The notes: a model not told the origin generated them from the sequence alone. A stretch of 33,503 nt of DNA from Verrucomicrobiota bacterium (GCA_025354845.1 JANXMD010000748.1:1-33503), one strand, 5' to 3'. Positions 10,404-31,549 are shown, counted from the first letter of the stretch. Numbers and translations are program-made.

Positions 10404-10580
10404 GCGGGCTTGGAGCCCATACTCGGTGGGTGTGGGCTGATGTCAAAAACGGAGCGCGGGCGTTCGGTATTCAAATGCGGTCCGGGAATCGGTCGCAAAG
10501 GTTCCCGCGGTCGGGTTTATGGCAGGCAGTGGCATGCCCGGGAATTGACCTTCCACACGACCCCTAGGCAGACTGTCGCA

Positions 10581-12209
10581 ATGCCTGAATCCATCGGCAA
10601 CGGGACCGCGACCGCAGGGCAGCCAAAAACTGCCGTGCGGTGGAATGTGCCGTTTTTGCTGATGCTGGCGGGCCTTTGGATCTGGGCGGTTTCCATCAAT
10701 TATCCGTTTTGGGACACCGACCCCAATTACTCCTTCGGATTCGTGGTACCGCCTTTGGTGGTATTCTTTCTGTGGAAGCGACTCGGGAGTGAGCCGGAAT
10801 CCTTCTGGAATTTTCTGCCTGACTCAGGAAAACGGTCCGCCCTGACGCCCCTGCTGTTGATCCTTCCGGGATTTGCGTTGTTTCCGGTGGAAGTGTACCG
10901 GATCGAGTATCACCAGTCGGGTATCGTGCTCTGGGCGATCAATCTGGCCATGGTGGCCTACACGATTGCGGGCGCCCGGTGGCTTGGAGGCGGCCGCCTC
11001 CTTTCGCGGGTTCTGTTTCCCGTCCTCTTCTTCCTGACCGCGGTGCCGTGGCCGGCCAAGGTTGCGGTTCCGTTTCAACAGATGCTGATGACGGGCGTGG
11101 CCCAGGTCGTCGCTGAACTCCTGTTGTGGTGCGGCATTCCGGTCAGCCTGGATGGTGCGGTGTTGCATTTGACCAAGGGCACGGTCGGGATCGTGGAGGC
11201 GTGCAGCGGCATCCGCTCCCTGCAGTCCGGCCTGATGGTCAGCCTCGCCGTGGGTGAATTGCTCGGCCTGACTCGGGCCCGCCGGACTGGGTTGGTGGGC
11301 TTCGCGATCGGGTTCGCCCTCGTCAGCAACCTGGCGCGGACCTTCACCCTGTGCTGGATCATGGAGCATCAGGGCGATCAGGCGATGCACCACTGGCACG
11401 ACCGGGTGGGAAACATCGCGATGTATTCGCTCTATGCGCTCATCTATCTGGTGGGAAAGCTGCTCGAGCCCAAAGGGGGGGCTCCCTGGCCAGATGGCTC
11501 AGGAAGCTGGACCGAACGGGCGAGGCGACTGCGCTGGACCGGGCTGCCCGACATCCGCCCGCTGCTGGCCGTTTTCGCGGGTACCTTTGTCGTCGTGCAC
11601 AGCTGGTATTTCGTCCTGAAGCTTCACGCGAAGCCGCAAACCACTCCGTACTTCACGCTGCGTCCGGGTGGGGAGACCAATGGGTTGGTTCGGATGGAAT
11701 TTGACGAGGAGGTCTGGCGTCGGCTGGGTGCCGACTCGGGGGAACAAATCCGGAAAAAAACCGGCCTGGCGCCCCTCGGAATCGTCGATGCGTACCATCT
11801 CTTCTGGCGGCCTTCGCCCATGAGCAAGATTGCACTGCATCATCGCCCAGACGTTTGCATGCCCGGAAACGGCTGGGTGCAAAAAGGGGAGGTGGAGACC
11901 GTGAATCTGGTCGTCGACGGCCAGCCCCTTCGTTTCCTGGTGTTCCGGTTTGAACGGGGCGAGACCAAGGCGGTGCAAGTCTGGGGCGTGTGGCGTAACG
12001 GGCAGCCGGTGGAGATGGACTACTCCAACCACCTGACGGCCCTGCCCGAGAAATATCGCCCGATTCCCAGCGAACGCCATCTCATGGGCGTCGAATTGGT
12101 CTCGCTGTTCATCCCCTATCAGGGCAACAACATCCCTGCCGAAGCGCTGTTTCGGACGCTGATGCCGGAGCTGTTCTCCTATCACGCCCCGGTCGCCGAG
12201 TCCCGATAG
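10581..12209 (+). CDS. exosortase fused to a C-terminal EpsI-family domain
   Basis: The N-terminal ~300 aa is polytopic and carries exosortase signatures: FFLTAVPWP, GIVEACSGIRSLQSG (Cys codon 11202-11204), SNLARTFT (Arg) and HHWHDRVGN (His). After one more TM segment, the last ~220 aa carries the EpsI hallmark HHRPDVCMPGNGW. The ATG at 10581 is preferred because the track start at 10227 overlaps the divergent gene. Confidence 0.85.
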   Translation: MPESIGNGTATAGQPKTAVRWNVPFLLMLAGLWIWAVSINYPFWDTDPNYSFGFVVPPLVVFFLWKRLGSEPESFWNFLPDSGKRSALTPLLLILPGFALFPVEVYRIEYHQSGIVLWAINLAMVAYTIAGARWLGGGRLLSRVLFPVLFFLTAVPWPAKVAVPFQQMLMTGVAQVVAELLLWCGIPVSLDGAVLHLTKGTVGIVEACSGIRSLQSGLMVSLAVGELLGLTRARRTGLVGFAIGFALVSNLARTFTLCWIMEHQGDQAMHHWHDRVGNIAMYSLYALIYLVGKLLEPKGGAPWPDGSGSWTERARRLRWTGLPDIRPLLAVFAGTFVVVHSWYFVLKLHAKPQTTPYFTLRPGGETNGLVRMEFDEEVWRRLGADSGEQIRKKTGLAPLGIVDAYHLFWRPSPMSKIALHHRPDVCMPGNGWVQKGEVETVNLVVDGQPLRFLVFRFERGETKAVQVWGVWRNGQPVEMDYSNHLTALPEKYRPIPSERHLMGVELVSLFIPYQGNNIPAEALFRTLMPELFSYHAPVAESR

Positions 12210-12244
12210 CCTCCAGTTTCCAACCCTTCTCAGATCCTCCTGCC

Positions 12245-14017
12245 GTGGATTCCCCGCCTTCCCCAAATCGTCGACCCTCTGGATCGCGGGGTCGCGTGCG
12301 CGTGGTCAAAACGACCGGGGTTCTCGCCGATGCCACGATCTGGATCCGCCGGATCGTCCTGTTTCTGGGAGTCGTCCTGGTCCTGGCTGGCATTGCAAAA
12401 CTGGCCTACGGACCGGCAAAGGTGGTTTGGGGGCGCCGACACGCCCGGGCCTCGGAAGATCTCTGGCGAAGCGGGGATGGTGCCGCCGCCAGTCAGCGCC
12501 TGCGTGCGGCCTTGCAGTTCGCGCCGCGAGATCCCGACGTGCTGCGCTGGGCGGCTCAATACTGCGCCAAGACGGGCCTGCCCCAGGGAATGATGTACTA
12601 CGAGATGCTGCTGTCCCACCCGGAGGCAACCCGCGAGGACCATGTGGCCTATGCCGAGCTCGCACTTCGCTTCAATCGGTTGGATTTCGCGGGACGCGAG
12701 ATCACCCAATTGCTCGCAAAGGAGCCTGATTCCCAGAAGCTGTTGCTGCTCCTCGTTTCCCAGCAGCGTCAGGCCCGGGATCTCGACGCCGCCGTTCGCA
12801 CTGCCCGCCGCGTCTTGCAACTGAGTCCGGTGGACGAGCAGGCGCAATTCGTTCTGGGGTCTCTCCTGCTTGAACATCGGGCCCACCCCGAGTTGGCCAG
12901 TGAGGGACAGCGTCTGCTGATGGGCGTGGTGGTTTCCCACGGAAACTCATCGATGGATGCGGCTCTGCGTCTCGCCGGCACGCGCGGATTGGAACGAGCG
13001 GATTTGGAAATTCTCAACAAGCTCCTGGTTGATTATCCACCGAAGACGATGACGGACCGACTTCTGGCCATGGATCTCCGGCTCATGGCCAATCCGGCGC
13101 GGAGCAATCAACTGGTTCTCGAAACGGTCCGGTTGGTCGTGCCCGAGTTGAAGACCACCAATGTGGGGGTGGTGGTAAACTGGGCGGTCCAGCGGGGCGG
13201 TGCCGCGCCGCTGCTCGAGGCGCTGCCGATCGGAGCGAATGAAACCAACACCGCGACCCTCTCCCTCCGGGGCGTCGTGCTGGGTCAGATGGCCGAGTGG
13301 AATGAGCTCGATGCGTTGCTGGGGCGCTACGAGTCACGGATGGAGCCGTTCATCGTGGAGAAGCTCAAGGGCCAAGTGGCGCTGGGACGCGGGCGAAATT
13401 CGGATGCCCAGATTCATTTTCAGGCGGCGATTTCAGAGAATCGGGTCACCCCCTTGCAGCTCCGGGCGCTGGGGCGGGAGTTCGAGGGGCTCCACCTTCC
13501 TTTGCTCGCGGCCCAGGCGAACGTCCGCGCGATGGCTCTCGCAAACGAGGGGGGAGATATTTCGACGACCCTGAATGCCGGTCTTGAAGTCCTGCGCCTT
13601 CTGGCGCCGACCGACGAGACAGCCTCGATTCGGGACACGCTCCGGATTCTGAGCAAAGTGCTCCCCGGTGATGATGCCCTGGCCGGGGAGCGTGCGTGGT
13701 ACGATTTACTCTACCGCGAAGACGTGGCGGCCTCGGCGGCGACGGCCGTGCGGCTCCACGCCGCGCATCCCGACGACGTGGCGTGGCGGGTGCTCCTGGC
13801 GCTCGCCGAGCTTCGATCCGACCGACCCGCGGAGGCACTCCAGGTGTTGGAGGAACCGCAGATTGAGTGGGTCAATGCGCGTCCGCGCTGGAAGGCGGTT
13901 TATGCGGCCGCACTCGGAGTCTCGCAGCGGCGCGAGGCGGCTCGGCGATTTGCCTCCCAGATTCCGGCCGGCAGCCTGAAGTCGCGCGAGCAGCAACTTA
14001 TCGAGCCCTGGCGCTGA
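12245..14017 (+). CDS. membrane-anchored TPR-like helical-repeat protein, function unknown
   Basis: 590 aa with one N-terminal TM helix (IWIRRIVLFLGVVLVLAGIAKLAY). The rest is Ala/Leu/Arg-rich helical repeats, for example AASQRLRAALQFAPRDPDVLRWAAQY and DLDAAVRTARRVLQLSPVDEQAQFVLG. It starts 35 nt after the exosortase stop. The GTG start is uncertain. Confidence 0.6.
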   Translation: MDSPPSPNRRPSGSRGRVRVVKTTGVLADATIWIRRIVLFLGVVLVLAGIAKLAYGPAKVVWGRRHARASEDLWRSGDGAAASQRLRAALQFAPRDPDVLRWAAQYCAKTGLPQGMMYYEMLLSHPEATREDHVAYAELALRFNRLDFAGREITQLLAKEPDSQKLLLLLVSQQRQARDLDAAVRTARRVLQLSPVDEQAQFVLGSLLLEHRAHPELASEGQRLLMGVVVSHGNSSMDAALRLAGTRGLERADLEILNKLLVDYPPKTMTDRLLAMDLRLMANPARSNQLVLETVRLVVPELKTTNVGVVVNWAVQRGGAAPLLEALPIGANETNTATLSLRGVVLGQMAEWNELDALLGRYESRMEPFIVEKLKGQVALGRGRNSDAQIHFQAAISENRVTPLQLRALGREFEGLHLPLLAAQANVRAMALANEGGDISTTLNAGLEVLRLLAPTDETASIRDTLRILSKVLPGDDALAGERAWYDLLYREDVAASAATAVRLHAAHPDDVAWRVLLALAELRSDRPAEALQVLEEPQIEWVNARPRWKAVYAAALGVSQRREAARRFASQIPAGSLKSREQQLIEPWR

Positions 14018-14103
14018 TCGGGAAACAGCCGGATTTCCACCCGGGATGAATCCCGCTGTTCACCGGGGTTGAAAAGACCTCCGGCCCGGGCCAGTTTGCC
14101 CGC

Positions 14104-14904
14104 GTGTTCGCCCTGTTTGACGAGCTAAGAAACCCAGCCCTGCTCCTCAGCAACCCCGTGGCATGGGTGCTGATTCCCTTCCAGCTGTGGATGCTGATCG
14201 ATGCCGTGCGCCGCGAGGACTGGATTTGGGCGGTATTCATCTTCATCGCCATGGCGTACTCCTCGGTGCTGCCCATCAGTGCGTTGTTGTACTACTTCAT
14301 GGTGTATCGCGCGCAGGGGCCCGCGGGCGGAGGCGGAGGACGGACGCGCGGGTTTGAATTGCCGGGAGCAGGTACGAGGCGCCGCATTCGTGAATTGGAG
14401 GGACGCATTCACCACCTCGACAAAGCCCGGGACCACCTTGAGTTGGCCGACATCTATTTCAGCCAAGGCAAGCTCCAGTTGGCCGAATCCAGCTATCGTG
14501 CGTCTCTGGAACGCGATCCTTCCGATCGCGACGCGGTGGCCCATCTGGGACAATGCCTGCTACGCTTGGGCCGCGCCGCGGAGGCGTTGCCGATGTTGGA
14601 ACGAGTGACCGCAGACGATTCGCGCCATGACTATGGGCATACCCTCATGGCCCTCGCCGAAACGCAGAGCGCCCTCGGCAATAACGACGGAGCCTTTCAG
14701 ACTTGGCGGCGGGTGTTGGAAAATCACGGGTATGCCCGCGCCCGGGTTCAGTTCTCCGAACTCCTCATGGTTCGCGGGGAACGAGATCGGGCACGCACCG
14801 AGTTGAACGAGGTGATCTCCGACGATCTCCACGCGCCCAAGTTCCAACGGGATCGTGACAAACCATGGGTGCGGCGCGCTCGGACCCTGCTTGGAAAGCT
14901 CTGA
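14104..14904 (+). CDS. membrane protein with a PLDc_N-like two-helix anchor fused to TPR repeats
   Basis: The N-terminus VAWVLIPFQLWMLIDAVRREDWIWAVFIFIAMAYSSVLPISALLYYFMVYR looks like the short membrane domain found at the N-terminus of cardiolipin synthases. A Gly-rich linker and TPR repeats follow (LADIYFSQGKLQLAESSYRASLERDPSDRDAVAHLGQCLLRLGRAAEALPMLE). Confidence 0.65.
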   Translation: MFALFDELRNPALLLSNPVAWVLIPFQLWMLIDAVRREDWIWAVFIFIAMAYSSVLPISALLYYFMVYRAQGPAGGGGGRTRGFELPGAGTRRRIRELEGRIHHLDKARDHLELADIYFSQGKLQLAESSYRASLERDPSDRDAVAHLGQCLLRLGRAAEALPMLERVTADDSRHDYGHTLMALAETQSALGNNDGAFQTWRRVLENHGYARARVQFSELLMVRGERDRARTELNEVISDDLHAPKFQRDRDKPWVRRARTLLGKL

Positions 14905-14905
14905 C

Positions 14906-16054
14906 ATGGACCCAGGTGCCGATCCTGCCCGGGAAGGCCGTTGGCTGAAGAACGGGCTCGCGTATTTCGACTCTCTCGAGCCCGGGCTGGCACGCGCGAA
15001 GCAAAGCATTCGTGTCGAGGTTTATATCATTGGGGACGATTCGGTGGGTCGACGGATTCGCGCGGCCTTGATCGCTGCAGTCGGTCGCGGGGTGCAGGTG
15101 ACTGTTCTCGCCGATGGGCTCGGATCCGCAGAGCTTCCCTCGGGTTGGTGGACACCGCTCGTGAAAGCAGGTGGAGAGGTCCATGTCTTCAACCCCCTCG
15201 CGTCCCGCCGCATTGGCATCCGGGATCACCGGAAGCTGGTTGTGGTGGATGACCGCGTGGCGTGGATTGGTGGGATTAACCTGTCGGATGACTACGCCGG
15301 GGATGGGGTCACCCAGGGCTGGGCCGATTGTGGATTCTGCATCGAGGGAGCCGCCGCGGGGCAACTGTCGAAGGAGTTCGATCTCATGGTTGCTAAATGC
15401 GCCTCCCGTCAGCCGAAGGTGGTCGTTGGCCGCATCCGTCGTGGCTCCCGCCCTCCGGCGCGCCTGATTGGCAGGGGGCTGGAGTTGATGGTCAGCGGCC
15501 CGGGGCGCATGGCCAACGCCTTCCAAAGATCGCTGCGCGAGGATATCGCCGGTTCACGACAGGTGCAGTTTGCAGTCGCCTACTTTCTGCCCGGATACCG
15601 CATGCGCCAACTCCTCCGTCGTATCTCGATGCGGGGAGCGTCGGTTCAAATCGTCGTGCCGGGACGGACCGATGTGCCGGTTGCCCTTCGTGCGGCTCGG
15701 CATCTCTATTCGGGGCTGATGCGGGCGGGCGTGGAGATATGGGAATATCAGCCGCAGGTGCTCCACACGAAGCTGTTTCTGGCCAATCGCGCAGCCTATG
15801 TGGGCTCATCGAACCTCGACACCCGCAGCCTCCACATCAACTACGAGCTCATGCTCCGATTGACCGATCCGGTGCTGGTGTCGCAGGCGCAATCCATGTT
15901 TGTCGAACTTCTGGAACGGTCAACCCGTGTCGATCCTGTCGTCTGGGCGACCTCGCGTTCCTGGCTCGAACGCTGGCGCGAACAGTGGGCGTTCTGGATC
16001 CTTTCCCGGGCGGATCCCTACGTGACCCGCTGGCTGGCGATGGGTCCGCGCTAG
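14906..16054 (+). CDS. phospholipase D superfamily phosphatidyltransferase with two HKD motifs (ClsB/PssA-like), no TM segment
   Basis: HKD motif 1 is HRKLVVVDDRVAWIGGINLSDDY (His codon 15227-15229). HKD motif 2 is LHTKLFLANRAAYVGSSNLDTRS (His codon 15764-15766). The ATG at 14906 lies 1 nt after the upstream stop (TGA 14902-14904). Confidence 0.85.
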   Translation: MDPGADPAREGRWLKNGLAYFDSLEPGLARAKQSIRVEVYIIGDDSVGRRIRAALIAAVGRGVQVTVLADGLGSAELPSGWWTPLVKAGGEVHVFNPLASRRIGIRDHRKLVVVDDRVAWIGGINLSDDYAGDGVTQGWADCGFCIEGAAAGQLSKEFDLMVAKCASRQPKVVVGRIRRGSRPPARLIGRGLELMVSGPGRMANAFQRSLREDIAGSRQVQFAVAYFLPGYRMRQLLRRISMRGASVQIVVPGRTDVPVALRAARHLYSGLMRAGVEIWEYQPQVLHTKLFLANRAAYVGSSNLDTRSLHINYELMLRLTDPVLVSQAQSMFVELLERSTRVDPVVWATSRSWLERWREQWAFWILSRADPYVTRWLAMGPR

Positions 16055-16076: not shown

Positions 16077-17795
16077 TCAGGCCTGGAACAGGGCTCTCGA
16101 ACGACGGCCCACCAATCGGCGGGCCCCCGCGAGACTCACCGCGAGCAACCCCATGCCGAACAGACCCAGGGCGCAAGCCACTCCGGGCGCACCCGGGTCG
16201 ATGCGGCCCATCAACTGCCAGATTTGCTTGGTGATGGGATAAAACCGGTCGCGCTGGGCGAGGATGAGGCTGTCGCTCACTTCCAGCATGGCGAAGGCGA
16301 AGGTCAGGATCATTCCTGCCATGAGGTGCGCGCCAATCAGCGGAAGCGTAATGCGGAAGAAGGTGCGGACGGGCCCGGCGCCGAGCATGGCGCTCGCCTC
16401 TTCCAGTGCCGGACTCATCTGCTCGAAGCCGGCAAATGCGGCGCGCACCATGTAGGGCAGCCGGCGCACGGCGTAGCTGATCACCAGCAAAAAGGTGGGA
16501 TTGGTCCTGGGATCCAACCAGGCATCGAGCCAGGGATGGTGCTTTTCGTTGACCTCAAACCCGGCGAAATAGCCGAAGGCCAGTACCAGCCCCGGCACGG
16601 CGAGGGGAAGCATGGCGAGGGTGTCGAGGAGACCTGCCAGCTTACCCGCGCGACGGCTGACCAGCCAGGCGATCCCCAAACCGAGGCCCAGATCGAGCAC
16701 GCTGCTGAGACCCGCAAAAACAAAGCTGTTTCGTACCGATGAGGCAGTGAGCCCGTGGCGGGCCACCTCGCGGAAGTTCGAGAGTGTCCACGCGTCAGGA
16801 AGCGGGCTGAAGAACCAATGGCTGGAGAAGGCCACGAGGCCGACGGAGAAGTGCGGCAGCACAGAAACCGCCAGCAGCAGTCCGATCCCGCCCCAAAACA
16901 AGACGGTTCGAATCGGGCGGGCCACCGGCAGTGCCGGACGAGCGCCGCGCATGGGCGCGGGACGGGCGGTTGCGGAAGCGAATCGGCGGGTGGCGAGGAA
17001 GACGCCGGCAATCAGCCCAATAAGGGCCGCGACGAGCACGTAGCCCTGGGAACTGGAATTGAGATCGTTCAGCGAGTCGAAGATCTGCACCGGCACCACC
17101 CGGCTGTATCCGGTGATCAGCGGGGTACCGAGATCGGTGAGGGCTCCGATCCACACCACCGTGGCCCCCGCCATCCACCCCGGGCGAACCAGGGGCAGGG
17201 TGATGGTTCGAAGTTCTCGCCACGCCGACGCTCCGAGGCCGGCCGCGCTTTCGCGAAGCGACGGATCCAGTTGAGTCATCGCCGCAGAGAGAGTGAGAAA
17301 CAAAACGGGATAGAAATGCAGGACCTGAAGCAGGATGATCGCCGGCAGGCCGCCGGAACCCAGCCAGTCGATCGGCGCCTCTGGATTCATCCAGCCGTGA
17401 TGGATCAGAAAGAGATTCAGCGCCCCAAAACGGGCGAAGAGCTGCTGCAGGCCAATCGCGCCAACGAAGGGGGGAAGGAGGATTGGCGCCAGCAGGAGCG
17501 CAGAAAGCTGGGGTTTTCCCGCGAAATCCCAGCGGCTCATCGGCCAAGCCAGCCCGAGCGCGAGCATCGAAGCGAGGGCAACGGTCGTCGTCGCGATGAG
17601 GATTGAATTGAAGAATGCTTCGCGAAGAAGGGGGTTCTCGAATACCTGGGAGAGTGGGTTGACTGCCGTTTCCCCGGGCAGTCCGAAGGAATGCCGAAGG
17701 GTGAATCCGATGGGGTACAGGAGAAACACCGCGAAAAATGCCAGACAGGCGGCGGTCAGAATCGTTTCGGGGAGGCGGCGTGTCCTGCGAGGCAT
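16077..17795 (-). CDS. ABC transporter permease with two fused transmembrane domains (iron(III)/thiamine FbpB-ThiP type)
   Basis: It has two permease halves, each with an EAA-type loop (LRESAAGLGASAWRELRTITLPLVRPG and ALEEASAMLGAGPVRTFFRITLPLIGAH). The track ORF runs up to 18281, but that stretch lies antisense to a tRNA gene. I therefore prefer the ATG at 17795 (MPRRTRRLPETILTAACLAFF...). Confidence 0.8.
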   Translation of the reverse strand: MPRRTRRLPETILTAACLAFFAVFLLYPIGFTLRHSFGLPGETAVNPLSQVFENPLLREAFFNSILIATTTVALASMLALGLAWPMSRWDFAGKPQLSALLLAPILLPPFVGAIGLQQLFARFGALNLFLIHHGWMNPEAPIDWLGSGGLPAIILLQVLHFYPVLFLTLSAAMTQLDPSLRESAAGLGASAWRELRTITLPLVRPGWMAGATVVWIGALTDLGTPLITGYSRVVPVQIFDSLNDLNSSSQGYVLVAALIGLIAGVFLATRRFASATARPAPMRGARPALPVARPIRTVLFWGGIGLLLAVSVLPHFSVGLVAFSSHWFFSPLPDAWTLSNFREVARHGLTASSVRNSFVFAGLSSVLDLGLGLGIAWLVSRRAGKLAGLLDTLAMLPLAVPGLVLAFGYFAGFEVNEKHHPWLDAWLDPRTNPTFLLVISYAVRRLPYMVRAAFAGFEQMSPALEEASAMLGAGPVRTFFRITLPLIGAHLMAGMILTFAFAMLEVSDSLILAQRDRFYPITKQIWQLMGRIDPGAPGVACALGLFGMGLLAVSLAGARRLVGRRSRALFQA

Positions 17796-17923
17796 GCGGA
17801 CGGGCAGGATCTCCCCCGACGATGTCGTCGGCGAGCGGGAAGATGACCAACCTGGCGTCCGAGTTCGGATCACGTGTCGCTTGACGGTCGTCAGGTCGAT
17901 CAGCACGCTTCGGGCGTCGTTGG

Positions 17924-17997
17924 GCGGGCGTAGCTCAATGGTAGAGTTCCAGTCTTCCAAACTGGCCATACGGGTTCGATTCCCGTCGCCCGCTCCA
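17924..17997 (+). tRNA. tRNA-Gly (anticodon UCC) with encoded CCA
   Basis: Folded by hand as a 74-nt cloverleaf. Acceptor stem GCGGGCG/CGCCCGC, D arm GCTC-AATGGTA-GAGT, anticodon stem CCAGT/ACTGG with loop CTTCCAA (anticodon TCC). T arm ACGGG-TTCGATT-CCCGT, then discriminator T and CCA. Confidence 0.93.
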
Positions 17998-18141
17998 GTC
18001 ACGTTCAGTCCGCGTTGAGCGTTTTCCAATGCCAGGGTCTCGGCCCCGGCTGGAAATGAGAAGGGCGCGGATCGGCAGGTGCCGTCTGGTTTCAAATCGG
18101 CAGTCTCGGCGCTCCGTTCCTCCATACTTCCCTCTTCTCTC

Positions 18142-18357
18142 ATGCCTCCAATTCCTGAAACACCCGACGACGCGTCTCCCCCGAAGCCAAAGCATACGTA
18201 CCGCTCCGAGGAAGATCGTCCGAGTCGCGTGTTCCAGTGGGCGGTCAACCTGCCCGACAAGTTCACGGCGCGAAAGTTCAACGGCTACCAGCTGTTTCTC
18301 GTACTGCTGCTGGGCGGACTGTTCTACGTGCTGGTTCTGGAACGCTTTGGAGATTGA
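18142..18357 (+). CDS. small hypothetical tail-anchored membrane protein
   Basis: 71 aa from the ATG at 18142: MPPIPETPDDASPPKPKHTYRSEEDRPSRVFQWAVNLPDKFTARKFNGYQLFLVLLLGGLFYVLVLERFGD. The N-terminus is polar and Pro-rich, and there is one C-terminal TM helix. Third-position GC is coding-like in the second half. I recognise no family. Confidence 0.4.
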   Translation: MPPIPETPDDASPPKPKHTYRSEEDRPSRVFQWAVNLPDKFTARKFNGYQLFLVLLLGGLFYVLVLERFGD

Positions 18358-18423: not shown

Positions 18424-21400
18424 ATGCGACGCGTGGATTCCGTCACTGGCATGGGCGTCGGTTCTGGCGTCGGCAGTCTCAGTCCTCTTGGGGCCGATGG
18501 ATCGGCGATGATCCGAAAATTGTACGAGACGATGTTCTCCGCCCGGACGGTCGACCAGGTGGAGATGGAACTGGTCAATCGCGGCGAGGCCTTCTTTCAC
18601 GTTGGCGGCGCAGGACACGAGGCCAGCGCGGTGCTTGCGGCACATTTGGGGCCGCAGGATTGGCTCCACCTTCATTACCGCGATAAGGCATTGATGCTGG
18701 CCCGCGGGGTCTCGGCGGAAATGTTCTTCCACAGTGCGTTGTGCACCGCGGATTCGCATTCTGCCGGACGGCAGATGAGTGCCCATCTCAGCGCGCCGGA
18801 TCTTCACCTGCTCAGCCTCGTGGGTCCGGTCGGCAACAACGCGCTGCAAGCGGTCGGGGTTGCGCAGGAGGTTCGAAATCGAGCCGGGTCACCGGTCGTG
18901 GTTTGCTCGGTTGGGGATGGAACGAGCCAGCAGGGGGAATTTCTGGAGGCGGTGGCGGAGGCAGTTCGATCCCGCGCTCCGGTGCTGTTCTGGATCGAGG
19001 ATAACGGGTTGGCGATTTCAACCCACACCCGCGGTGCCACGCTGTACGATCTTCCCAGTGGACCCGCCTCTGAGTTTCTCGGGCTGCCCATTCACCGGCT
19101 CGACGGTCGGGATCCGCTGTCCTGCCTGCGGACTGCTGGGGAGTTGGTGGAATCGATTCGCCGGACCCGCGGTCCGGTGTTGGCCGTGTTCCGCGTCGAA
19201 CGATTGACGCATCACACGAATGCCGACGACGAACGGGTGTATCGAAGCGAGTCGGAGCGCCGCGAAGCTCGGACGGTGGCCGATCCGTTGTCGGCCATGC
19301 GCGCGGCGGTGCTGGGATCTGGGGTTGAGGCGCAGGAACTGGACGCACTCGAGGCTCAGTGGATTTTGAACGTCCGTGCCGCCGCGGAGCGGGCGTTGCG
19401 GTCCCCGAATCCGGCAGTCAACCTGGACGCACGAGCCCCCTTACTGCCCAACTGCGACGCGCGCCCCGAGCAGACGGGCGCCGGGCAGGCCGCGGATGCG
19501 CGTCGCACCACCATGCTGGAGGCGATGCGCGAGGTGCTTCGGCTTCGCCTGCACGCGGATTCACGGGTGACGCTTTCGGGACAGGATCTCGAGGATCCCA
19601 AGGGGGACGTCTTTGGGCTCACCCGCGGGTTGTCCACGACGTTTCCGGGACGCGTGCGAAATTCGCCCCTGGCCGAGAGCACGATCGTCGGGGTGGGAAT
19701 CGGCCGGGCCCTTGCCGGCGGTCGCCCCGTGTCCTGCATTCAGTTCGCTGATTTTCTTCCGATCGCCTTCAATCAGATTGCGAGCGAGATGGGATCGATG
19801 TTCTGGCGTAGCGTCGGCGGATGGCGCGTCCCGATGATCCTGATGGCGCCTTGTGGTGGCTATCGTCCGGGCCTTGGCCCCTTTCATGCGCAGACCTTCG
19901 AATCGCTGCTGGCCCACGTTCCCGGCATTGATGTCGCGATTCCGAGCAATGCGGGGGATGCCGCTGGCCTGCTGAATGCGGCGTTCGAGTCCGGCCGCCC
20001 GACCGTGTTTCTGTATCCCAAGGTCTGCCTCAACGACCCTTCCCTGGCCACGTCGGGCGATCTCGCCGGGCATTGGGTGAAGCCTGGCGTCGCGCGCCGG
20101 ATTCGTAACGGCAATGACCTGACTCTCGTCACGTGGGGGGGCACGGTTCCGCTGTTGTCGCGGGTCGTTGAACTGCTCCATGCGGCCGGAGTCCAGGTGG
20201 ATTTTCTCGATCTCCGAACCGTGAGCCCGTGGGATGCGGAGGCCGTGGTGGAAAGCTCGGAACGCACCGGTCGACTTTTGGTGGTGCATGAAGACAATCT
20301 CACCTGCGGGTTTGGCGCCGAGGTGCTGGCGACGGTGTTGGAACGGTCGAAGCGTCCGGTTCGCGCCCGACGCGTAACCCGGCCCGACACCTATGTTCCG
20401 TGCAATTATGTGAACCAGCTCGAGGTGCTGCCCGGAATCCGGCGGATCTTGCAGGCGGTCTCCGAGTTGTGCGGGCTTGAGGTCACCTGGGCTCCTGAGG
20501 CGGTTGCGGACCCTGGAATGTTTCTTTTGGAAGCCGTGGGATCGAGCCCTGCCGATCAGACCGTCGCGGTGGTGGACTGGAAGGTTCGCGAGGGTCAGTC
20601 GGTGACCGCAGGCGAGTTGCTCGCGGACTGCGAGGCGGACAAGGCAACCTTTGAACTGCGGGCCCCTGTATCGGGTGTCATCCGCGATCTTCGGGCGCAG
20701 GATGACCGCGTTCCGGTCGGCACCTTGCTGGCACGGATTGCCACTGAAAGGGCAGCGCCGGCGTTGCCCCGACGTACTCCGGTCGAGCCGGTACCGGCGC
20801 TCATCCGCAAGCAGCGTGTTCCAGCAGGTGGACCTCTGGAGCACGCGCCCACACCGTTGGCGGTGCCGGCCAGGATCGATGTTTCGGACTTCGTGGTGGG
20901 GATTGCCGCGGTCGCTGCCGTTCCTGCGGGTCGGATTGTGACCAACGCGGAATTGGTGAGGCGCTTTCCCGGCCGGACTGCGGCCGACATTTTGCAGCGA
21001 ACCGGAATTGAATCGCGACCACGGCTCGACGTCGGCGAATCGGTGGTGTCCCTCGCGGCGGCGGCGGCCCGAAAGGCGCTGCAGGAATCCGGACTCGAGG
21101 CCTCATCGCTCGACGCGATCTTTGTCAGTACGAGCTCCCCAGTCTCTCTCAGCCCGAGTCTCGCCTGCCTGCTTCATCATGAACTCGCACGAGACGGAGC
21201 CATTCGTGACCTGCCGGCGGTCGACCTCCTGGCGGCCTGTACTGGGTACCTCTACGCGCTGCAATCGGCGCATGATTTTTGCCGGGCGCGTCCCGGTGCA
21301 CGCGTGCTGGTGGTGACCGCGGAGGCCATGAGCACCTACACCGACCCGGATGATTTCGACACCGCAATTGTCTTTGCCGACGCCGCCACCGCGACTGTCG

Positions 21401-21855
21401 TGGTGGGGCCGTTGGCCCCGGGATTCAACCAGGCTCGAGCCCACCTGCATCGGCCGGTGCTCAGCGCCCGCGGCGAAGATGGCACCATCCTGAACCACGG
21501 GCGACGGGAGCATCCCGAGGTCAACATGGACGGGTTGAAGGTGTTCCCCATGGCGGTCCGGCAGCTGATCGCGCTCATGAAGCAGGCCTGCGAGGAATGC
21601 CAGGTGCCCATGGAGTCCCTCGAGTATATCATTCCGCACCAGGCAAACGGTCGAATTCTCGACGCGGTGGATCAACGGCTCCGCCTGCCTACCGGCCGAT
21701 TGGTCAATCGGGTGCGTCATCTCGGGAATTCCAGCAGCAGCACCATTCCCTTGGTTTTGGCGCAAATCTTGTCGGAATCCCCCGTGGGACGCGCCGGATT
21801 ATGCGCCTTCGGCGGTGGATTCACCTTCGGGGCGGCCATTTTGGAATTCCGTTAA
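18424..21855 (+). CDS. four-module fusion: 2-oxoacid dehydrogenase E1-alpha, E1-beta, lipoyl domain and FabH-type 3-oxoacyl-ACP synthase III
   Basis: A single uninterrupted 1143-codon ORF. E1-alpha spans about aa 29-330 (nt 18508-19413) and has the TPP motif GDGTSQQGEF...LFWIEDNG. E1-beta spans about aa 362-690 (nt 19507-20493: SPLAESTIVGVGIGRALAGGRPV, FADFLPIAFNQI, LRTVSPWD). The lipoyl domain spans about aa 699-773 (nt 20518-20742: VVDWKVREGQSVTAGELLADCEADKATFELRAPVSG, Lys codon 20641-20643). A Pro/Ala-rich linker covers aa 774-820. KAS III spans aa 821-1143 (nt 20884-21852), with Cys in DLLAACTGYLYAL (21238-21240), His in IIPHQANG (21637-21639) and Asn in HLGNSSSSTIP (21727-21729). The true start may be the ATG at 18508 (MIRKLYETMF). 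Confidence 0.85.
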   Translation: MRRVDSVTGMGVGSGVGSLSPLGADGSAMIRKLYETMFSARTVDQVEMELVNRGEAFFHVGGAGHEASAVLAAHLGPQDWLHLHYRDKALMLARGVSAEMFFHSALCTADSHSAGRQMSAHLSAPDLHLLSLVGPVGNNALQAVGVAQEVRNRAGSPVVVCSVGDGTSQQGEFLEAVAEAVRSRAPVLFWIEDNGLAISTHTRGATLYDLPSGPASEFLGLPIHRLDGRDPLSCLRTAGELVESIRRTRGPVLAVFRVERLTHHTNADDERVYRSESERREARTVADPLSAMRAAVLGSGVEAQELDALEAQWILNVRAAAERALRSPNPAVNLDARAPLLPNCDARPEQTGAGQAADARRTTMLEAMREVLRLRLHADSRVTLSGQDLEDPKGDVFGLTRGLSTTFPGRVRNSPLAESTIVGVGIGRALAGGRPVSCIQFADFLPIAFNQIASEMGSMFWRSVGGWRVPMILMAPCGGYRPGLGPFHAQTFESLLAHVPGIDVAIPSNAGDAAGLLNAAFESGRPTVFLYPKVCLNDPSLATSGDLAGHWVKPGVARRIRNGNDLTLVTWGGTVPLLSRVVELLHAAGVQVDFLDLRTVSPWDAEAVVESSERTGRLLVVHEDNLTCGFGAEVLATVLERSKRPVRARRVTRPDTYVPCNYVNQLEVLPGIRRILQAVSELCGLEVTWAPEAVADPGMFLLEAVGSSPADQTVAVVDWKVREGQSVTAGELLADCEADKATFELRAPVSGVIRDLRAQDDRVPVGTLLARIATERAAPALPRRTPVEPVPALIRKQRVPAGGPLEHAPTPLAVPARIDVSDFVVGIAAVAAVPAGRIVTNAELVRRFPGRTAADILQRTGIESRPRLDVGESVVSLAAAAARKALQESGLEASSLDAIFVSTSSPVSLSPSLACLLHHELARDGAIRDLPAVDLLAACTGYLYALQSAHDFCRARPGARVLVVTAEAMSTYTDPDDFDTAIVFADAATATVVVGPLAPGFNQARAHLHRPVLSARGEDGTILNHGRREHPEVNMDGLKVFPMAVRQLIALMKQACEECQVPMESLEYIIPHQANGRILDAVDQRLRLPTGRLVNRVRHLGNSSSSTIPLVLAQILSESPVGRAGLCAFGGGFTFGAAILEFR

Positions 21856-21940: not shown

Positions 21941-23179
21941 ATGGCGTTGCTCAACGAGAACTATCTCAAACTGAAGGCAGGGTACCTCTTTCCGGAAATC
22001 GGCAGGCGGGTGAAGGCGTTTACCGAGGCCAATCCCGAGGCGGCAAAACGGCTCATCCGATGCGGTATCGGCGACGTGACTGAGCCGCTGCCCCCGGCGG
22101 TTGTCGCGGCGTTGCATCGCGCCGTGGATGAAATGGCCCAGCGCTCCAGCTTTCGCGGCTACGGTCCGGAGCAGGGCTATGACTTCCTGCGCTCGGCGAT
22201 CGCCCAGAACGACTACCGCGCCCACGGTATCGAAATCGCCGATGACGAAATCTTCGTTAGCGACGGCTCCAAATGTGACTGCGGGGCCATCCTCGACATT
22301 CTGGGGGACCGGAACCGAATCGCCATCTCGGATCCGGTGTATCCCGTGTATGTCGATACCAATGTCATGGTGGGGCATACCGGCGCCTCGGACGCTTCCG
22401 GTGCCTACGCCGGGCTGGTGTATCTGCCGTGCACGCCGTCCAACGGATTCATTCCGGAGCCTCCGCAGGAAGCGGTTGACGTCGTCTACCTCTGCTCCCC
22501 CAACAACCCAACTGGGGCTGCGGCAAGTCGCGCTCAGCTCGAGGCTTGGGTCGCCTACGCGCTCAAGCATGGAGCGCTGTTGCTCTTTGATGCCGCCTAT
22601 GAGGCCTACATCACCGAACCGGGTGTACCGCATTCGATTTACGAGATTCCCGGTGCCCGGGACTGCGCGATCGAGTTCCGCAGCTTCTCCAAGAATGGCG
22701 GATTCACCGGCACCCGCTGCGCGTTCACGGTGGTGCCCAAAAGCCTAAAGGGTCGCACCGCAAGTGGCGACCAACTCCCCTTGCATCCCCTGTGGCTGCG
22801 TCGGATGACCACCAAGTTCAACGGGGTTCCTTATATCGTTCAGCGAGCCGCTGAGGCGCTGTACTCCCCGGACGGAAAGTCCCAGGTTCGCGATCTCATC
22901 CAGCACTACCTTGGAAACGCCGCGGTCTTGGTTGCCGGGGCTCGGGCCGCGGGACTCGAGGTCTTTGGGGGGGTGAATGCCCCTTATATCTGGGCAGCCA
23001 CGCCGGCCGGAATCACCAGTTGGCAGGCCTTTGATCGCATCCTGGGCGATGCCCACGTGGTTATCACGCCGGGAAGCGGCTTCGGTTCCAAGGGGGAGGG
23101 CTATTTTCGCGTCAGCGCCTTTAATTCTCGGGTGAACGCGGAGGAGGTCGCCCGCAGGATTCAACAGCTGAAGTGGTGA
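21941..23179 (+). CDS. dapL: LL-diaminopimelate aminotransferase
   Basis: 412 aa, starting [27 protein letters not shown]...[12 protein letters not shown], with the PLP lysine region [17 protein letters not shown]. Length and termini are typical of DapL. Confidence 0.9.
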
Positions 23180-23273: not shown

Positions 23274-24665
23274 TCAGGTGGTGAGCTGGCTGAGACGCCC
23301 GGTGCTATCGCCAAACCGCTCCGCCTGGACTCCCATTCGATCCAGCATCGAGAGGAACAGGTTGGCCATTGGAGTTTCCTTGGGAACGCGGATATGGCGT
23401 CCCGTCTGGATCGAACCACCGCCCCTTCCGGCCACCAGCACCGGCAGATTCTCATGGGCGTGGGCATTTCCGTCTGCCAACCCGCTGCCATACACGATCA
23501 TGGATTGATCCAGCAGCGTGCCCGAGCCCTCGCGGATCGATTTCAATTTGTTCAGGAAGTAGGCGAACTGCTCCATGTGGAAGCGGTTGATCTTCGCAAT
23601 CTTGGCTTTCTTCTCGGGATCATTCTGATGATGGGAGAGCGTATGATGCCCTTCGGGGACGCCAATCTGGGGATAGGCCTCGTCGCTGCCGTCATGTTTC
23701 ATGACGAAAGTCGCCACGCGGGTGGCGTCGGTTTGGAAGGCTAGCGCGAGGACGTCGAGCATCAGGCGGGAGTGGGGCGCGAAATCCGGACGGTTGCGGT
23801 CGTTCTTCGGGATTCCGGTCGGCTTTTGGAACCCTGGCAGGTCCTTGCCCGCGTTTTTCGCCAACTCAATCCGGCGCTCCAAGTCCCGAACCGAGGTCAA
23901 ATACTCGTCCAATTTTCGCTGGTCGGTCTTCCCTAGCTTGGAATTCAGCGAGCGTGCGTCTTCCAGCACAAAGTCCAGGATGCTCTTTTCAGCGCGTTCC
24001 CGCCGGATTCGGCGCTCCAGCGTCTCCTCGGGATTTGCAGAGGCGAATAGCCGATCGAAAGCGAGGGCTGGGTCCACTTCCGGAGGCAGGGGAGAGGAGG
24101 GTGTCCTCCAGGCGACGTTGAACGAGTAGGCACAGCTGTACCCGGAGTCGCAGTTTCCGGAGGTCTGTCCGCGGTCGCAGCCCAGTTCCAGGGAAGCGAA
24201 TCGGGTCTCCCGGCCAAGCCGCTGCGCGGCGACCTGATCCACCGAGACGCCGGCATGGATGTCCACGCCGTTGGTTTTGCGGATCCGGGTGGAGGTTAGC
24301 CAGGTCGCCGAAGCCCGGGCGTGATCCCCGGCTCCATCCATTTTGGCGCGGCCCGAATCTTGGGTGAGCCCGGAGAGGACGCTGAAGTCCGACTTCAGAC
24401 CCGCCAGCGGCTCCAAGATCGTCGGTAGATCAAAATCCGAGCCGACGGTCTTGGGAGTCCAGTCCGCCATGTTGACCCCGTTCGGCACATAGAGGAATGC
24501 CATGCGTCTCGGCGCGGATCCCACCGCGCCCGAAATGCCTGGGATGGAGGCGTCGGCCAACGATTCCAACGGCGAAACCGATTCCAACGCAGGCAGGGCC
24601 ATGAGTGTGCCGAGTCCGCGCAAAAACTGCCGCCGGGCCACAGGAAAGCTCTTGTTCATAGGCAT
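23274..24665 (-). CDS. DUF1501 domain protein (sulfatase/alkaline-phosphatase-like fold) with a twin-arginine signal
   Basis: 463 aa. The N-terminus MPMNKSFPVARRQFLRGLGTLMALPAL is Tat-like. The body has typical DUF1501 blocks (GAGDHARASATWLT, SGYSCAYS, FVMKHDGSDEAYPQIGVPEGHHTLSHH, IVYGSGLADGNAHAHENLPVLVAG). Confidence 0.85.
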   Translation of the reverse strand: MPMNKSFPVARRQFLRGLGTLMALPALESVSPLESLADASIPGISGAVGSAPRRMAFLYVPNGVNMADWTPKTVGSDFDLPTILEPLAGLKSDFSVLSGLTQDSGRAKMDGAGDHARASATWLTSTRIRKTNGVDIHAGVSVDQVAAQRLGRETRFASLELGCDRGQTSGNCDSGYSCAYSFNVAWRTPSSPLPPEVDPALAFDRLFASANPEETLERRIRRERAEKSILDFVLEDARSLNSKLGKTDQRKLDEYLTSVRDLERRIELAKNAGKDLPGFQKPTGIPKNDRNRPDFAPHSRLMLDVLALAFQTDATRVATFVMKHDGSDEAYPQIGVPEGHHTLSHHQNDPEKKAKIAKINRFHMEQFAYFLNKLKSIREGSGTLLDQSMIVYGSGLADGNAHAHENLPVLVAGRGGGSIQTGRHIRVPKETPMANLFLSMLDRMGVQAERFGDSTGRLSQLTT

Positions 24666-29725: not shown

Positions 29726-31534
29726 CTAGCGAACTCGAACGAAAAGGACGCTCCCCGAGAACGGCACCGTCACCTCGACCAACGCTGAGACCGAAGGCGG
29801 ATCCAGCACCCGGTAGGTCTTCCATGAGGTGCCTGAACCAAGATCCGCGAGGGTTTCGATCACGTATCCGTGACCCGCGACGGCCGTGAACGCGATGCGA
29901 ATCCCATTGGCGCCGTCCAGTGTGGCGGTGACCGCCGGCGGGGTGGAGACGACCGCATCGGTGGTCCAGTTCGTCGCGACGTTCGCGTAGAGCTTCGGGT
30001 TTATTCGCTGGAGCGCCGCGCCGGTGCCGTCGGCGGCTACCGGCCACGGGGCGGAGGCGTCGTAGGTGATCTTCTCGACCCGGATGTATGGCACGTAGCC
30101 CGCATCCGGGTGCGGGGGTTCCTGGGGCGGATCGGGCTTGAACAGTTCCACCGTGTCACCGGCGTTGTTTAAGAGGTTGGTCCATGGGCCGAAAACTTGA
30201 ATCGATGCGGGAATGGAATACTTCGCACGGAAGGCCACGGGCGAAAGCGGTGTAACGAGGCACTTCTCGTCGGGCTTCAAGACGACACCGGCTGGGAAGT
30301 CGTAGTTCACCGCATTGCGGATCCGCCAAGTATTGGTGGGAAACCGAATGTCAAAAAGCGGCAGGTTGGTACTCGCAATGTTGATGAGTTCCAGAAACTC
30401 ATCCTGGTTGGTCAGTGGGTGATACTGGATGCGGTTGAACACCAGGGGACCGACCCGGGGCAGGGAATTCGAGGCCCCGGTTCCCGTTCGGAATTGGGAG
30501 AGGAATTCCGCCGGGTAGGTCGCATCAATCGCGGTGCCCAGGGTAAGTCGCTCCATCGCCACCAGGGGGCCGGTGAAGTCCGGGTAGCGACCAAAGCTCA
30601 CTCCATGTTCCGCGGAATCAAAGCTTACCGCATCGATCCACGTCAGAAGGTTGCCGGCAGCATCCGCGGAAACAATGACCGCCTCATCGCCGTGCGCCGA
30701 GTTGAAGGTGAACTCGGGATCGTTGCCGGTCCCGCGAGAATTGAATCCCAGGGGACTCCCGGTGCCGGTGAGTTCGTAGAATACACGGAATCCGTGGGCG
30801 GGAATCAGCGTCCCGACGGGGAACCTGAATTTCTTGGGTGTGGCGCGGTTGTTCGAGAGGTACCAGCCACCGAGATCAATGGCAGCGTCGGTGAGATTGT
30901 AGAGTTCGATGGCATCCTCGATCGGAGGATCGGTGTGAGTGAGGACCTCATTGATCACGACTGATTTCTGCGCGCCAATCCCCGCGTGTCCCGGCGACCC
31001 GTTGTATTCCGTACTGGAACGCCAATTGGCCGGATCGTTCAAGTTCCCTGCGGGATCGATGCACTCGAGGGAACTGCCCAGGCCGTTGGCGCGCGACGGC
31101 CACGCTCCGGAGCTGTCGTAAGTGCATTTGAACACCCCACTGCCGACGGAATCGACCAGCGTCAGCGTGTCGCCGGAATCGCTCAACTTACCGCTGTACG
31201 AGCCCGAGCCGAGGAGGATTCCCGTCGAGCCGTAGCGCGATAGGAATGCCGAGCGGGTATTGCAGACGACGATCCTCCCGCCCGCAGGAACCACCGTGCC
31301 GGCGCTGAAGGTGTAGGTGACCCCGGTGGTGAGCTTGTAGCCTCCGATGTTCAATGGTGAGGCGGACACGTTGACGAGTTCGAGGAACTCGTAGTCCGAG
31401 CCGCCGGGGGGATTGTACTGGATCTCGGAGACCGAAATCTGCGGCGCGGCAAGCAGCGAGAACGCGCTGCCAACCGTCGCAGAACCAATGGCGAGGCGCT
31501 GACGCCACGCTCCAAGAAAAGGAATCTTCATCAA
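29726..31534 (-). CDS. secreted protein with three lamin-tail-domain (LTD) repeats
   Basis: It has a signal peptide and three LTD openings: ISVSEIQYNPPGGSDYEFLELVNVSASPLNIGGYKL, VVINEVLTHTDPPIEDAIELYNLTDAAIDLGGWYLSNN and LVFNRIQYHPLTNQDEFLELINIAS. Confidence 0.8.
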   Translation of the reverse strand: MMKIPFLGAWRQRLAIGSATVGSAFSLLAAPQISVSEIQYNPPGGSDYEFLELVNVSASPLNIGGYKLTTGVTYTFSAGTVVPAGGRIVVCNTRSAFLSRYGSTGILLGSGSYSGKLSDSGDTLTLVDSVGSGVFKCTYDSSGAWPSRANGLGSSLECIDPAGNLNDPANWRSSTEYNGSPGHAGIGAQKSVVINEVLTHTDPPIEDAIELYNLTDAAIDLGGWYLSNNRATPKKFRFPVGTLIPAHGFRVFYELTGTGSPLGFNSRGTGNDPEFTFNSAHGDEAVIVSADAAGNLLTWIDAVSFDSAEHGVSFGRYPDFTGPLVAMERLTLGTAIDATYPAEFLSQFRTGTGASNSLPRVGPLVFNRIQYHPLTNQDEFLELINIASTNLPLFDIRFPTNTWRIRNAVNYDFPAGVVLKPDEKCLVTPLSPVAFRAKYSIPASIQVFGPWTNLLNNAGDTVELFKPDPPQEPPHPDAGYVPYIRVEKITYDASAPWPVAADGTGAALQRINPKLYANVATNWTTDAVVSTPPAVTATLDGANGIRIAFTAVAGHGYVIETLADLGSGTSWKTYRVLDPPSVSALVEVTVPFSGSVLFVRVR

Positions 31535-31549
31535 GCTATGGAATGGAAC

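Follow-up and report, generated by a model that had tools for sequence, protein, structure and literature searches.

A single-chain fusion of 2-oxoacid dehydrogenase E1, lipoyl and FabH-like modules suggests a coenzyme-A-free start of fatty-acid or polyketide chains

Introduction

The choice and delivery of the first acyl unit set the structure of membrane lipids, and this step is also an antibiotic target. Known routes of initiation are the acyl-coenzyme A (CoA)-dependent reactions of FabH and FabY, the MadA/MadB-catalysed decarboxylation of malonyl-acyl carrier protein (ACP), and a FabB-based route in P. putida (PMC10869286). Here we analyse a gene at positions 18424-21855 of a 33,503-nucleotide stretch of DNA from a Verrucomicrobiota bacterium (GCA_025354845.1 JANXMD010000748.1:1-33503; this whole stretch is hereafter called the window). 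Its product of 1143 amino acids (aa), the window protein, joins the E1-alpha and E1-beta modules of a 2-oxoacid dehydrogenase, a lipoyl domain and a KAS III (3-ketoacyl-ACP synthase III) domain, an architecture that suggests an undescribed CoA-free way to start a fatty-acid or polyketide chain.

The window protein shares the E1 alpha and beta folds, all catalytic residues and the lipoyl lysine in its DKA turn with the branched-chain 2-oxoacid dehydrogenase (BCKDH) and pyruvate dehydrogenase (PDH) complexes, whose E1 is an alpha2beta2 assembly. It differs from them in that alpha, beta and lipoyl parts form one chain, KAS III stands in place of the E2 core, the peripheral subunit-binding domain (PSBD) is missing and no gene for the dihydrolipoamide dehydrogenase (E3) lies nearby; the lipoyl-PSBD order of E2 is retained by two of its relatives, P0205 and P0219. 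Fused E1 alpha-beta proteins annotated as '2-oxoisovalerate dehydrogenase E1 component' have the same alpha-then-beta order and occur in split relatives as genes for 657-661 aa immediately upstream of lipoyl-KASIII genes but, unlike the window fusion, end after the beta module.

The QncN/QncL/QncM and SclQ1-4 systems of quinocarcin-type pathways also combine a thiamine diphosphate (ThDP) enzyme with a lipoyl arm and bring an acyl group to ACP without a CoA ester, and in QncL the E1-beta-like domains are fused to a lipoyl domain and an E2-type acyltransferase that loads ACP (PMC6335953). In contrast, the window protein ends in a condensing enzyme, contains no acyltransferase domain and has no ACP gene in the window; whereas QncN/L/M have a dedicated ACP, an adjacent ACP gene is seen only in relatives of the window protein. 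AcoC of acetoin dehydrogenase, where a lipoyl domain is joined to an alpha/beta-hydrolase-fold acetyltransferase that makes acetyl-CoA and carries out no Claisen condensation, is a precedent for a lipoyl domain on a non-canonical catalytic domain, although unlike the window protein it has no condensing enzyme. For the complete architecture we found no named family, no solved structure and, in a literature search limited to freely readable full texts, no published description, in line with an earlier sequence-only reading of this DNA that recognised no characterised precedent.

One reading frame, four modules

The modules of the open reading frame (ORF) and their key codons are the following:

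18424..21855, + strand: whole ORF of the E1alpha-E1beta-lipoyl-KASIII fusion, with ATG start, 1143 aa and TAA stop (ORF list, codon check)
18424..18507, + strand: non-conserved N-terminal 28 residues, with alternative starts at Met10 (18451) and Met29 (18508)
18526..19416, + strand: thiamine pyrophosphate (TPP)-binding E1-alpha module, PF00676; G164-D165-G166 at 18913-18921, N194 at 19003-19005, His264 at 19213-19215
19510..20421, + strand: E1-beta module, with Transket_pyr at residues 363-533 and Transketolase_C at 555-666; Glu418 at 19675-19677, His488 at 19885-19887
20515..20748, + strand: lipoyl domain, residues 698-775; K740 codon at 20641-20643, motif E-A-D-K-A
20749..20898, + strand: Pro/Ala-rich flexible linker, residues 776-825; no PSBD; P-R-R-x-P-V-E-P motif
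20899..21852, + strand: KAS III (FabH-like) domain, residues 826-1143; C939 at 21238-21240, H1072 at 21637-21639, N1102 at 21727-21729
Within the KAS III domain, + strand: ACP-docking R1077 codon at 21652-21654; replaced CoA-clamp codons for D855 at 20986-20988 and F978 at 21355-21357

A Pfam search of the window protein returned six domains, all above gathering score and in the order that the sequence-only reading had given: E1_dh (residues 35-331, 124 bits against a cut-off of 22), Transket_pyr (85 against 27), Transketolase_C (91 against 25.9), Biotin_lipoyl (714-772, 47 bits), ACP_syn_III (934-994, 61 bits) and ACP_syn_III_C (1056-1141, 68 bits). The ORF was exactly as proposed there, and the module junctions placed in that reading agree with the Pfam boundaries. 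No match to the E2 core (2-oxoacid_dh) or to the PSBD (E3_binding) was obtained with the window protein at E<=0.01, and the E2 acyltransferase core is replaced by a KAS III condensing domain. An AlphaFold2 model built from 47 homologues has a mean predicted local distance difference test (pLDDT) score of 85.3, and values <50 are limited to residues 1-23 and linker residues 798-818. In Foldseek comparisons, the target-normalised template modelling (TM) score was 0.90-0.93 for the KAS domain against FabH crystal structures and 0.86-0.92 for the E1-beta module against E1-beta structures; no PDB entry covers the whole chain, for which the best query-normalised TM is 0.45.

Conservation was assessed in an alignment of 183 distinct full-length homologues (160 from the Planctomycetes-Verrucomicrobia-Chlamydiae (PVC) group, 9 actinobacterial and 14 from Rhizobium). 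It collapses only in residues 1-25 (conservation 0.04, gap fraction 0.48) and in the linker 776-825 (0.14 and 0.44 over residues 801-825), a pattern that fits flexible tethers around a swinging arm. Because residues 1-25 are unconserved and disordered in the model, translation may start at Met29 (18508) instead of 18424, the first 28 residues perhaps being untranslated. The linker contains the conserved motif P-R-R-x-P-V-E-P (20767-20790, residues 782-789), with R784 and P786 invariant in 47 sequences, and AlphaFold predicts a short strand just past it (20794-20808, residues 791-795). This motif may be a docking element.

Occurrence of the fusion

Searching 5.8 billion protein clusters, we recovered at least 120 clusters (at 90% identity) of proteins of 1058-1207 aa with the same six Pfam domains and 53-93% identity to the window protein. 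In a species-representative genome set (one genome per species), 129 stretches encode a relative; our locus results concern the best 80 of these 129, most of which align across nearly the whole window protein. Identity to the window protein is 58-76% for homologues from Verrucomicrobiota/Limisphaerales metagenome-assembled genomes (MAGs), about 53-58% for those from Thermoleophilia/Miltoncostaeales-type actinobacterial MAGs, and 45-46% for those from cultured Rhizobium of the tropici/rhizogenes group, namely R. leucaenae, R. freirei PRF 81, R. lusitanum, R. multihospitium, R. rhizogenes and Rhizobium sp. WW22 (complete genome, CP178198). A complete Limisphaerales chromosome, OZ260084.1, is also among the carriers. 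The MAG labels Bifidobacterium, Cyanophyceae, Akkermansia and Bdellovibrionales on a few carriers are probably binning or naming errors, the first of them, attached to several of the Thermoleophilia/Miltoncostaeales-type MAGs, probably being a taxonomic mislabel. The Rhizobium orthologues are labelled merely 'thiamine pyrophosphate-dependent enzyme' in RefSeq (90% cluster, n=146), while other homologues appear as 'transketolase' (some, RefSeq) or '2-oxoisovalerate dehydrogenase E1 component' (many, JGI). A tblastn search of PLSDB plasmids with the lipoyl-KASIII part gave no match.

The chance that an assembly or sequencing artefact, a missed stop or a frameshift has joined separate genes is next to nil, given that the architecture recurs in at least 120 clusters and most of the 80 loci, which are uninterrupted and include complete Rhizobium genomes; the earlier view that the fusion is genuine is borne out.

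The E1 and lipoyl modules

The cofactor-site motif GDG...N, the lysine in EADKAT and the Cys/His/Asn triad, all pointed out in the sequence-only reading, were verified at codon level and by their conservation among the 183 homologues. G164, N194, His264 (within H-T-N-A-D-D), Glu418 and His488 are invariant, and D165 is present in 182 of the 183. From established enzymology we take these to be the TPP/Mg site, the cofactor-activating glutamate of the beta module (Glu418) and the two histidines of reductive acylation (His264 and His488). The lipoyl Lys740, in E-A-D-K-A-T with its DKA turn, is likewise invariant, and this region matches the NCBIfam AcoC model PRK14875 at 47.5 bits.

The identity of the 2-oxoacid is less easily read. 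The closest solved structures to the E1-alpha module are Thermus 1um9_A (5e-36) and human BCKDH alpha (6e-27), followed by the PDH alpha subunits of Geobacillus (3e-19) and human (1e-16) and by P. putida BCKDH alpha (8e-14); for E1-beta, BCKDH and PDH types are matched about equally well in PDB comparisons. In NCBIfam, the first 690 residues reached no named equivalog for PDH, BCKDH or acetoin E1, the best scores falling far under the equivalog cut-offs (161 against 411 for PDH_E1_alph_x, 173 against 454 for E1 beta). By PDB ranking the E1 part leans to the BCKDH type, too weakly for a substrate to be named. A branched-chain 2-oxoacid would be our leading guess, with pyruvate and 2-oxobutyrate possible.

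A transketolase-like reaction was also considered, in which the TPP module would cleave a C2 (glycolaldehyde-type) unit from a ketose phosphate and provide a glycolyl primer. It has a model in QncN/QncL/QncM, which charge ACP with a glycolicacyl unit by means of a ThDP domain, Pyr/transketolase-C, a lipoyl domain and an acyltransferase domain (PMC6335953), and it would agree with the 'transketolase' name given to some homologues by RefSeq. We nevertheless hold it to be very improbable: the alpha module belongs to Pfam E1_dh and is closest to the 2-oxoacid dehydrogenase E1 structures cited above, its transketolase and DXS matches being far weaker, although QncN entered this comparison through its published description and not its sequence.

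The KAS III domain and the loss of the CoA clamp

PDB alignments and Foldseek both assign the C-terminal 318 residues to the KAS III fold. Like E. coli FabH (1HN9) and B. subtilis FabHA (8VD9), the domain has the Cys-His-Asn triad, the equivalent of Arg249, and Arg36 and Asn247. Cys939, Asn1102 and Arg1077 are invariant among the homologues and His1072 is found in 182/183; Arg1077 corresponds to Arg249 of E. coli FabH, a residue known for docking ACP.

The domain departs from FabH where CoA is held. E. coli FabH holds the CoA adenine by a hydrogen bond to Thr28 and by stacking between Trp32 and Arg151 (PMC4606726). The Thr28 position is Arg or Lys in 181/183 homologues (R851 in the window protein), Trp32 is replaced by Asp or Glu in 180/183 (D855) and Arg151 by Phe in all 183 (F978), and the same replacements are visible in the PDB alignments. 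Further differences from FabH are the lipoyl tether, the change of GDGAG to ADAAT, and Ser or Thr throughout the fusion homologues at the position of E. coli Phe87 (Ser910 in the window protein, 21151-21153), where B. subtilis FabHA has Phe. Phe87 presumably caps the small primer pocket of the E. coli enzyme, and we take M. tuberculosis FabH to resemble the Ser/Thr state. The pocket of the fusion may thus be roomier and accept a larger primer.

As a control, the lipoyl+KASIII part was compared with 1.84 billion representatives of 50%-identity clusters, and 149 new matches were tabulated. Both Trp32 and Arg151 are kept in 39 solo KAS III proteins (mostly of about 310-350 aa) among these representatives, and in none of the lipoyl-linked ones. 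Since only solo enzymes carry both residues, loss of the CoA-nucleotide clamp, as judged from these alignments, goes with attachment to a lipoyl domain. Wherever the region is present in these divergent representatives, the catalytic Cys and His are kept and the docking position is occupied by either Arg or Lys; one representative has Asp for Asn.

Architectural relatives

A domain census of the best 150 clusters at 50% identity, counting that of the query itself, gave 39 with E1a-E1b-lipoyl-KAS, 20 with E1b-lipoyl-KAS (many of them fragments), 12 with lipoyl-KAS and 79 with KAS only. Several of these relatives are informative. P0202 is a lipoyl-KASIII protein of 442 aa whose gene shares 4 bp with the end of a gene for a 661-aa fused E1alpha-beta, an arrangement seen on three independent contigs; the lipoyl domain stays with KAS III when the system is split. 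P0205 and P0219 have the order lipoyl-PSBD-KASIII, their E3_binding scores (32 and 31 bits) exceeding the gathering score of 23.7, and the window protein is gapped at the PSBD position in a pairwise alignment with such a relative. The P0205 gene lies 13 bp downstream of a gene for a 657-aa E1alpha-beta, and both proteins (loci L087:2419-5940 and L088) are encoded immediately behind such a fused gene. By sequence, their layout is exactly that of an E2 chain whose catalytic core would have been exchanged for a condensing enzyme, and the PSBD implies E3 as a partner.

Other relatives carry or adjoin an ACP. A small ACP gene lies directly downstream of P0201 and of P0206. P0141, of 1942 aa, adds a polyketide synthase (PKS)-type ketoreductase (KR, residues 1337-1518), an ACP (1625-1683) and about 250 C-terminal residues without a Pfam match, and this extension implies an ACP-bound 3-keto product. 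Its locus (L081:10001-15829, GCA_029777335.1 JAKOSN010000236.1) has unrelated neighbours (DHH, EVE, AbiEii).

In a crude neighbour-joining tree, one clade holds 57 of the 62 KAS domains that are linked to a lipoyl domain, whereas the PSBD and split forms and two Trp-retaining fusions lie nearer canonical FabHs. P0205 and P0219 are not part of the main fusion clade; their KAS domains retain Arg151 and carry Tyr, an aromatic residue, where FabH has Trp32. The E1 of the P0205 operon is only 29% identical to that of the window protein. The split operons may be a separate lineage. Because PSBD-containing split forms lie outside the main clade, these forms may be early-branching, or the combination may have arisen more than once.

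Proposed mechanism

We lean towards the view that the window protein is a hybrid of a 2-oxoacid dehydrogenase and a fatty-acid or polyketide initiation enzyme, in which the KAS III cysteine would receive the acyl group straight from the lipoyl arm, and this group would then be condensed with malonyl-ACP. The fused E1 alpha-beta, with TPP/Mg2+, would decarboxylate a 2-oxoacid and reductively acylate lipoyl-Lys740 of the same chain or of a dimer partner. The arm would then swing on its flexible linkers and deliver its acyl load directly to Cys939, bypassing acyl-CoA. Malonyl-ACP, docked at Arg1077, would be decarboxylated with the help of His1072 and Asn1102, giving 3-oxoacyl-ACP, and the dihydrolipoyl arm would be re-oxidised by E3 acting in trans. 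The net chemistry would be that of BCKDH plus FabH minus the acyl-CoA intermediate. As the E1 alpha2beta2 assembly and FabH are both two-fold symmetric, the protein is probably a homodimer.

Several observations weigh against this mechanism. It is built on anatomy and conservation, with lipoylation and acyl transfer as predictions. The window protein has no PSBD, which leaves the access of E3 to the lipoyl arm without explanation. The KAS domain stays under the NCBIfam cut-offs for FabH (234.9 against 249 for PRK09352, 201.8 against 292.1 for TIGR00747) and so is a divergent FabH. The replaced adenine clamp shows that canonical CoA binding is gone, which is no demonstration that the lipoyl arm binds in its stead; since the pantetheine-contacting Arg36 and Asn247 are largely kept in the homologues, a pantetheine-borne primer such as acyl-ACP is possible. 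The five lipoyl-linked KAS III domains nearer canonical FabHs in the tree have an aromatic residue at Trp32 or retain Arg151, so that clamp loss is not universal. Lastly, all-against-all BLAST clustering of the 80 loci found no conserved neighbour and no pathway context for the fusion gene in Verrucomicrobiota.

Gene neighbourhoods

The 88 loci examined encode neither E2 nor Lpd, ACP or a further FabH in the surrounding 10 kb or so; a tblastn scan of these loci with the E. coli sequences of Lpd, AcpP and FabH gave a single weak match, to a pyridine-nucleotide oxidoreductase. Synteny in the 80-locus clustering is conserved only at genus level, in Rhizobium. There (L066-L080, e.g. L068:8694-16494) the fusion gene lies directly downstream of a di-iron FA_hydroxylase-family gene on the same strand, at about 240-280 bp, and is convergent with a gene for a 281-aa Asp/Asn-hydroxylase, followed by a ClC channel gene. 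An olsC-sycA cluster for ornithine-lipid hydroxylation has been published for R. tropici (PMC5936775), and by sequence the Rhizobium neighbourhood matches this cluster, which would make it a membrane-lipid neighbourhood, in one genus only. The R. tropici genome and acid-stress papers name olsC and sycA but never the fusion gene. In actinobacterial MAGs (L043, L047-L054, L056 and L059), the fusion is flanked by luciferase-like monooxygenase genes.

In the window, the fusion gene stands between a tRNA-Gly gene and dapL, with an ABC permease gene nearby; these neighbours are unrelated to it and not conserved:

16077-18281, - strand: ABC permease ORF of 734 aa with two BPD_transp_1 domains, N-terminus over-extended
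17924-17997, + strand: tRNA-Gly(TCC), on the opposite strand inside the listed permease ORF
21941-23179, + strand: DapL-type LL-diaminopimelate aminotransferase (TIGR03542, 555 bits), 86 bp downstream of the fusion

Because the permease ORF runs across tRNA-Gly(TCC), the true permease start lies further in. dapL is not conserved next to the fusion gene, and no functional link between the two is evident. The tRNA-Gly/dapL setting fits a stand-alone housekeeping enzyme and proves nothing.

Elsewhere in the window, further gene regions were noted at 6851-7519 (-), 7551-10403 (-), 10227-16054 (+), 23274-24665 (-) and 29726-33460 (-). Other genes encode Rex, a redox-sensing repressor; two products of PVC signature genes, one with PSCyt/DUF1549/DUF1553 and one with DUF1552; the exosortase EpsH, along with TPR proteins and a ClsB-like member of the phospholipase D family; and two proteins with lamin-tail domains. 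The DUF1549/DUF1553/PSCyt, DUF1552 and exosortase genes, all typical of the PVC group, agree with a verrucomicrobial origin of the window.

Alternative explanations

It is possible, and we hold this only tentatively, that the same chemistry has a specialised role, the fusion acting as the starter or loading module of a dedicated product, either a lipid or something polyketide-like, and not of bulk membrane fatty acids, an explanation that overlaps with the mechanism proposed above. The PKS-type KR and own ACP that follow KAS III in P0141 and the dedicated ACP genes directly downstream of P0206 and P0201 would suit such a role. So would the canonical FabH and mostly straight-chain fatty acids of Rhizobium, and the Ser/Thr at the Phe87 position, which suggests a larger primer pocket. 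The Rhizobium orthologue, moreover, sits between a di-iron fatty-acid-hydroxylase-family gene and the olsC-sycA cluster (PMC5936775). On the other hand, the gene stands by itself both in the window and at 51 verrucomicrobial loci, where ACP, KR, thioesterase and tailoring genes are absent and no neighbour is conserved, and its wide vertical spread in Verrucomicrobiota is more housekeeping-like than cluster-like. The broader claim, that the fusion is the main fatty-acid initiator in much of Verrucomicrobiota and some Planctomycetota and Actinomycetota, where it would replace the BCKDH E2 core and canonical FabH, seems to us rather doubtful.

These considerations also divide what the sequence-only reading had made of the fusion. 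Its idea of a physical coupling of primer generation to the condensing enzyme has gained support from the absent E2 core, the lost CoA clamp and the split, PSBD-bearing and KR-ACP relatives. Its link to branched-chain 2-oxoacids and iso/anteiso membrane fatty acids found no support: the E1 only leans to BCKDH, some relatives have an ACP or KR-ACP setting more suggestive of specialised metabolism, and Rhizobium, whose fatty acids are not mainly branched-chain, carries the gene as well. The same reading did allow for a polyketide-like product.

The KAS III domain could instead be a plain acyltransferase, a surrogate of the E2 core that passes the lipoyl-bound acyl group on to CoA or holo-ACP with no condensation. 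It does occupy the catalytic position of E2 in the lipoyl-PSBD-X layout, it scores under the FabH equivalog cut-offs, and KAS III-like acyltransferases exist (DpsC, CerJ). However, Asn1102 is invariant and His1072 present in 182/183 homologues, both being kept in divergent representatives, and their established role is malonyl decarboxylation, whereas known acyltransferase-type KAS III have altered triads. The ACP-docking Arg1077 is conserved, loss of the CoA-adenine clamp speaks against CoA as acceptor, and the KR-ACP extension of P0141 implies a 3-keto product that needs reduction. For these reasons we regard an acyltransferase without condensation as unlikely.

We give still less credit to a fusion that serves co-expression only, where a separate E2/E3 would make free acyl-CoA and the attached FabH would use it in the normal way. 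This would be the textbook BCKDH to FabH route of Firmicutes, and the E1 is indeed closest to BCKDH-type and Gram-positive PDH-type enzymes. Yet the lipoyl domain, normally on the E2 chain, is attached to KAS III in the window protein as in the split relatives, a gene for an E2 core is missing from the vicinity, and the FabH residues that hold the CoA adenine are replaced throughout.

Implications

The family is large and abounds in the mostly uncultured Verrucomicrobiota of fresh water and soil, and its presence in the genetically tractable Rhizobium makes the hypothesis directly testable. If the acyl hand-over is true, a lipoyl-fed condensing enzyme would be a new form of chain initiation and a new use of the swinging arm of 2-oxoacid dehydrogenases. 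2-oxoacids derived from amino acids would be channelled into lipids, and acyl-CoA would not be exposed to catabolism. Should the fusion be the main initiator in these bacteria, it would add a further CoA-independent route beside FabH, FabY, malonyl-ACP decarboxylase and FabB. Since one polypeptide would convert a 2-oxoacid to 3-oxoacyl-ACP, the module could also serve the engineering of fatty acids and polyketides with designer primers.

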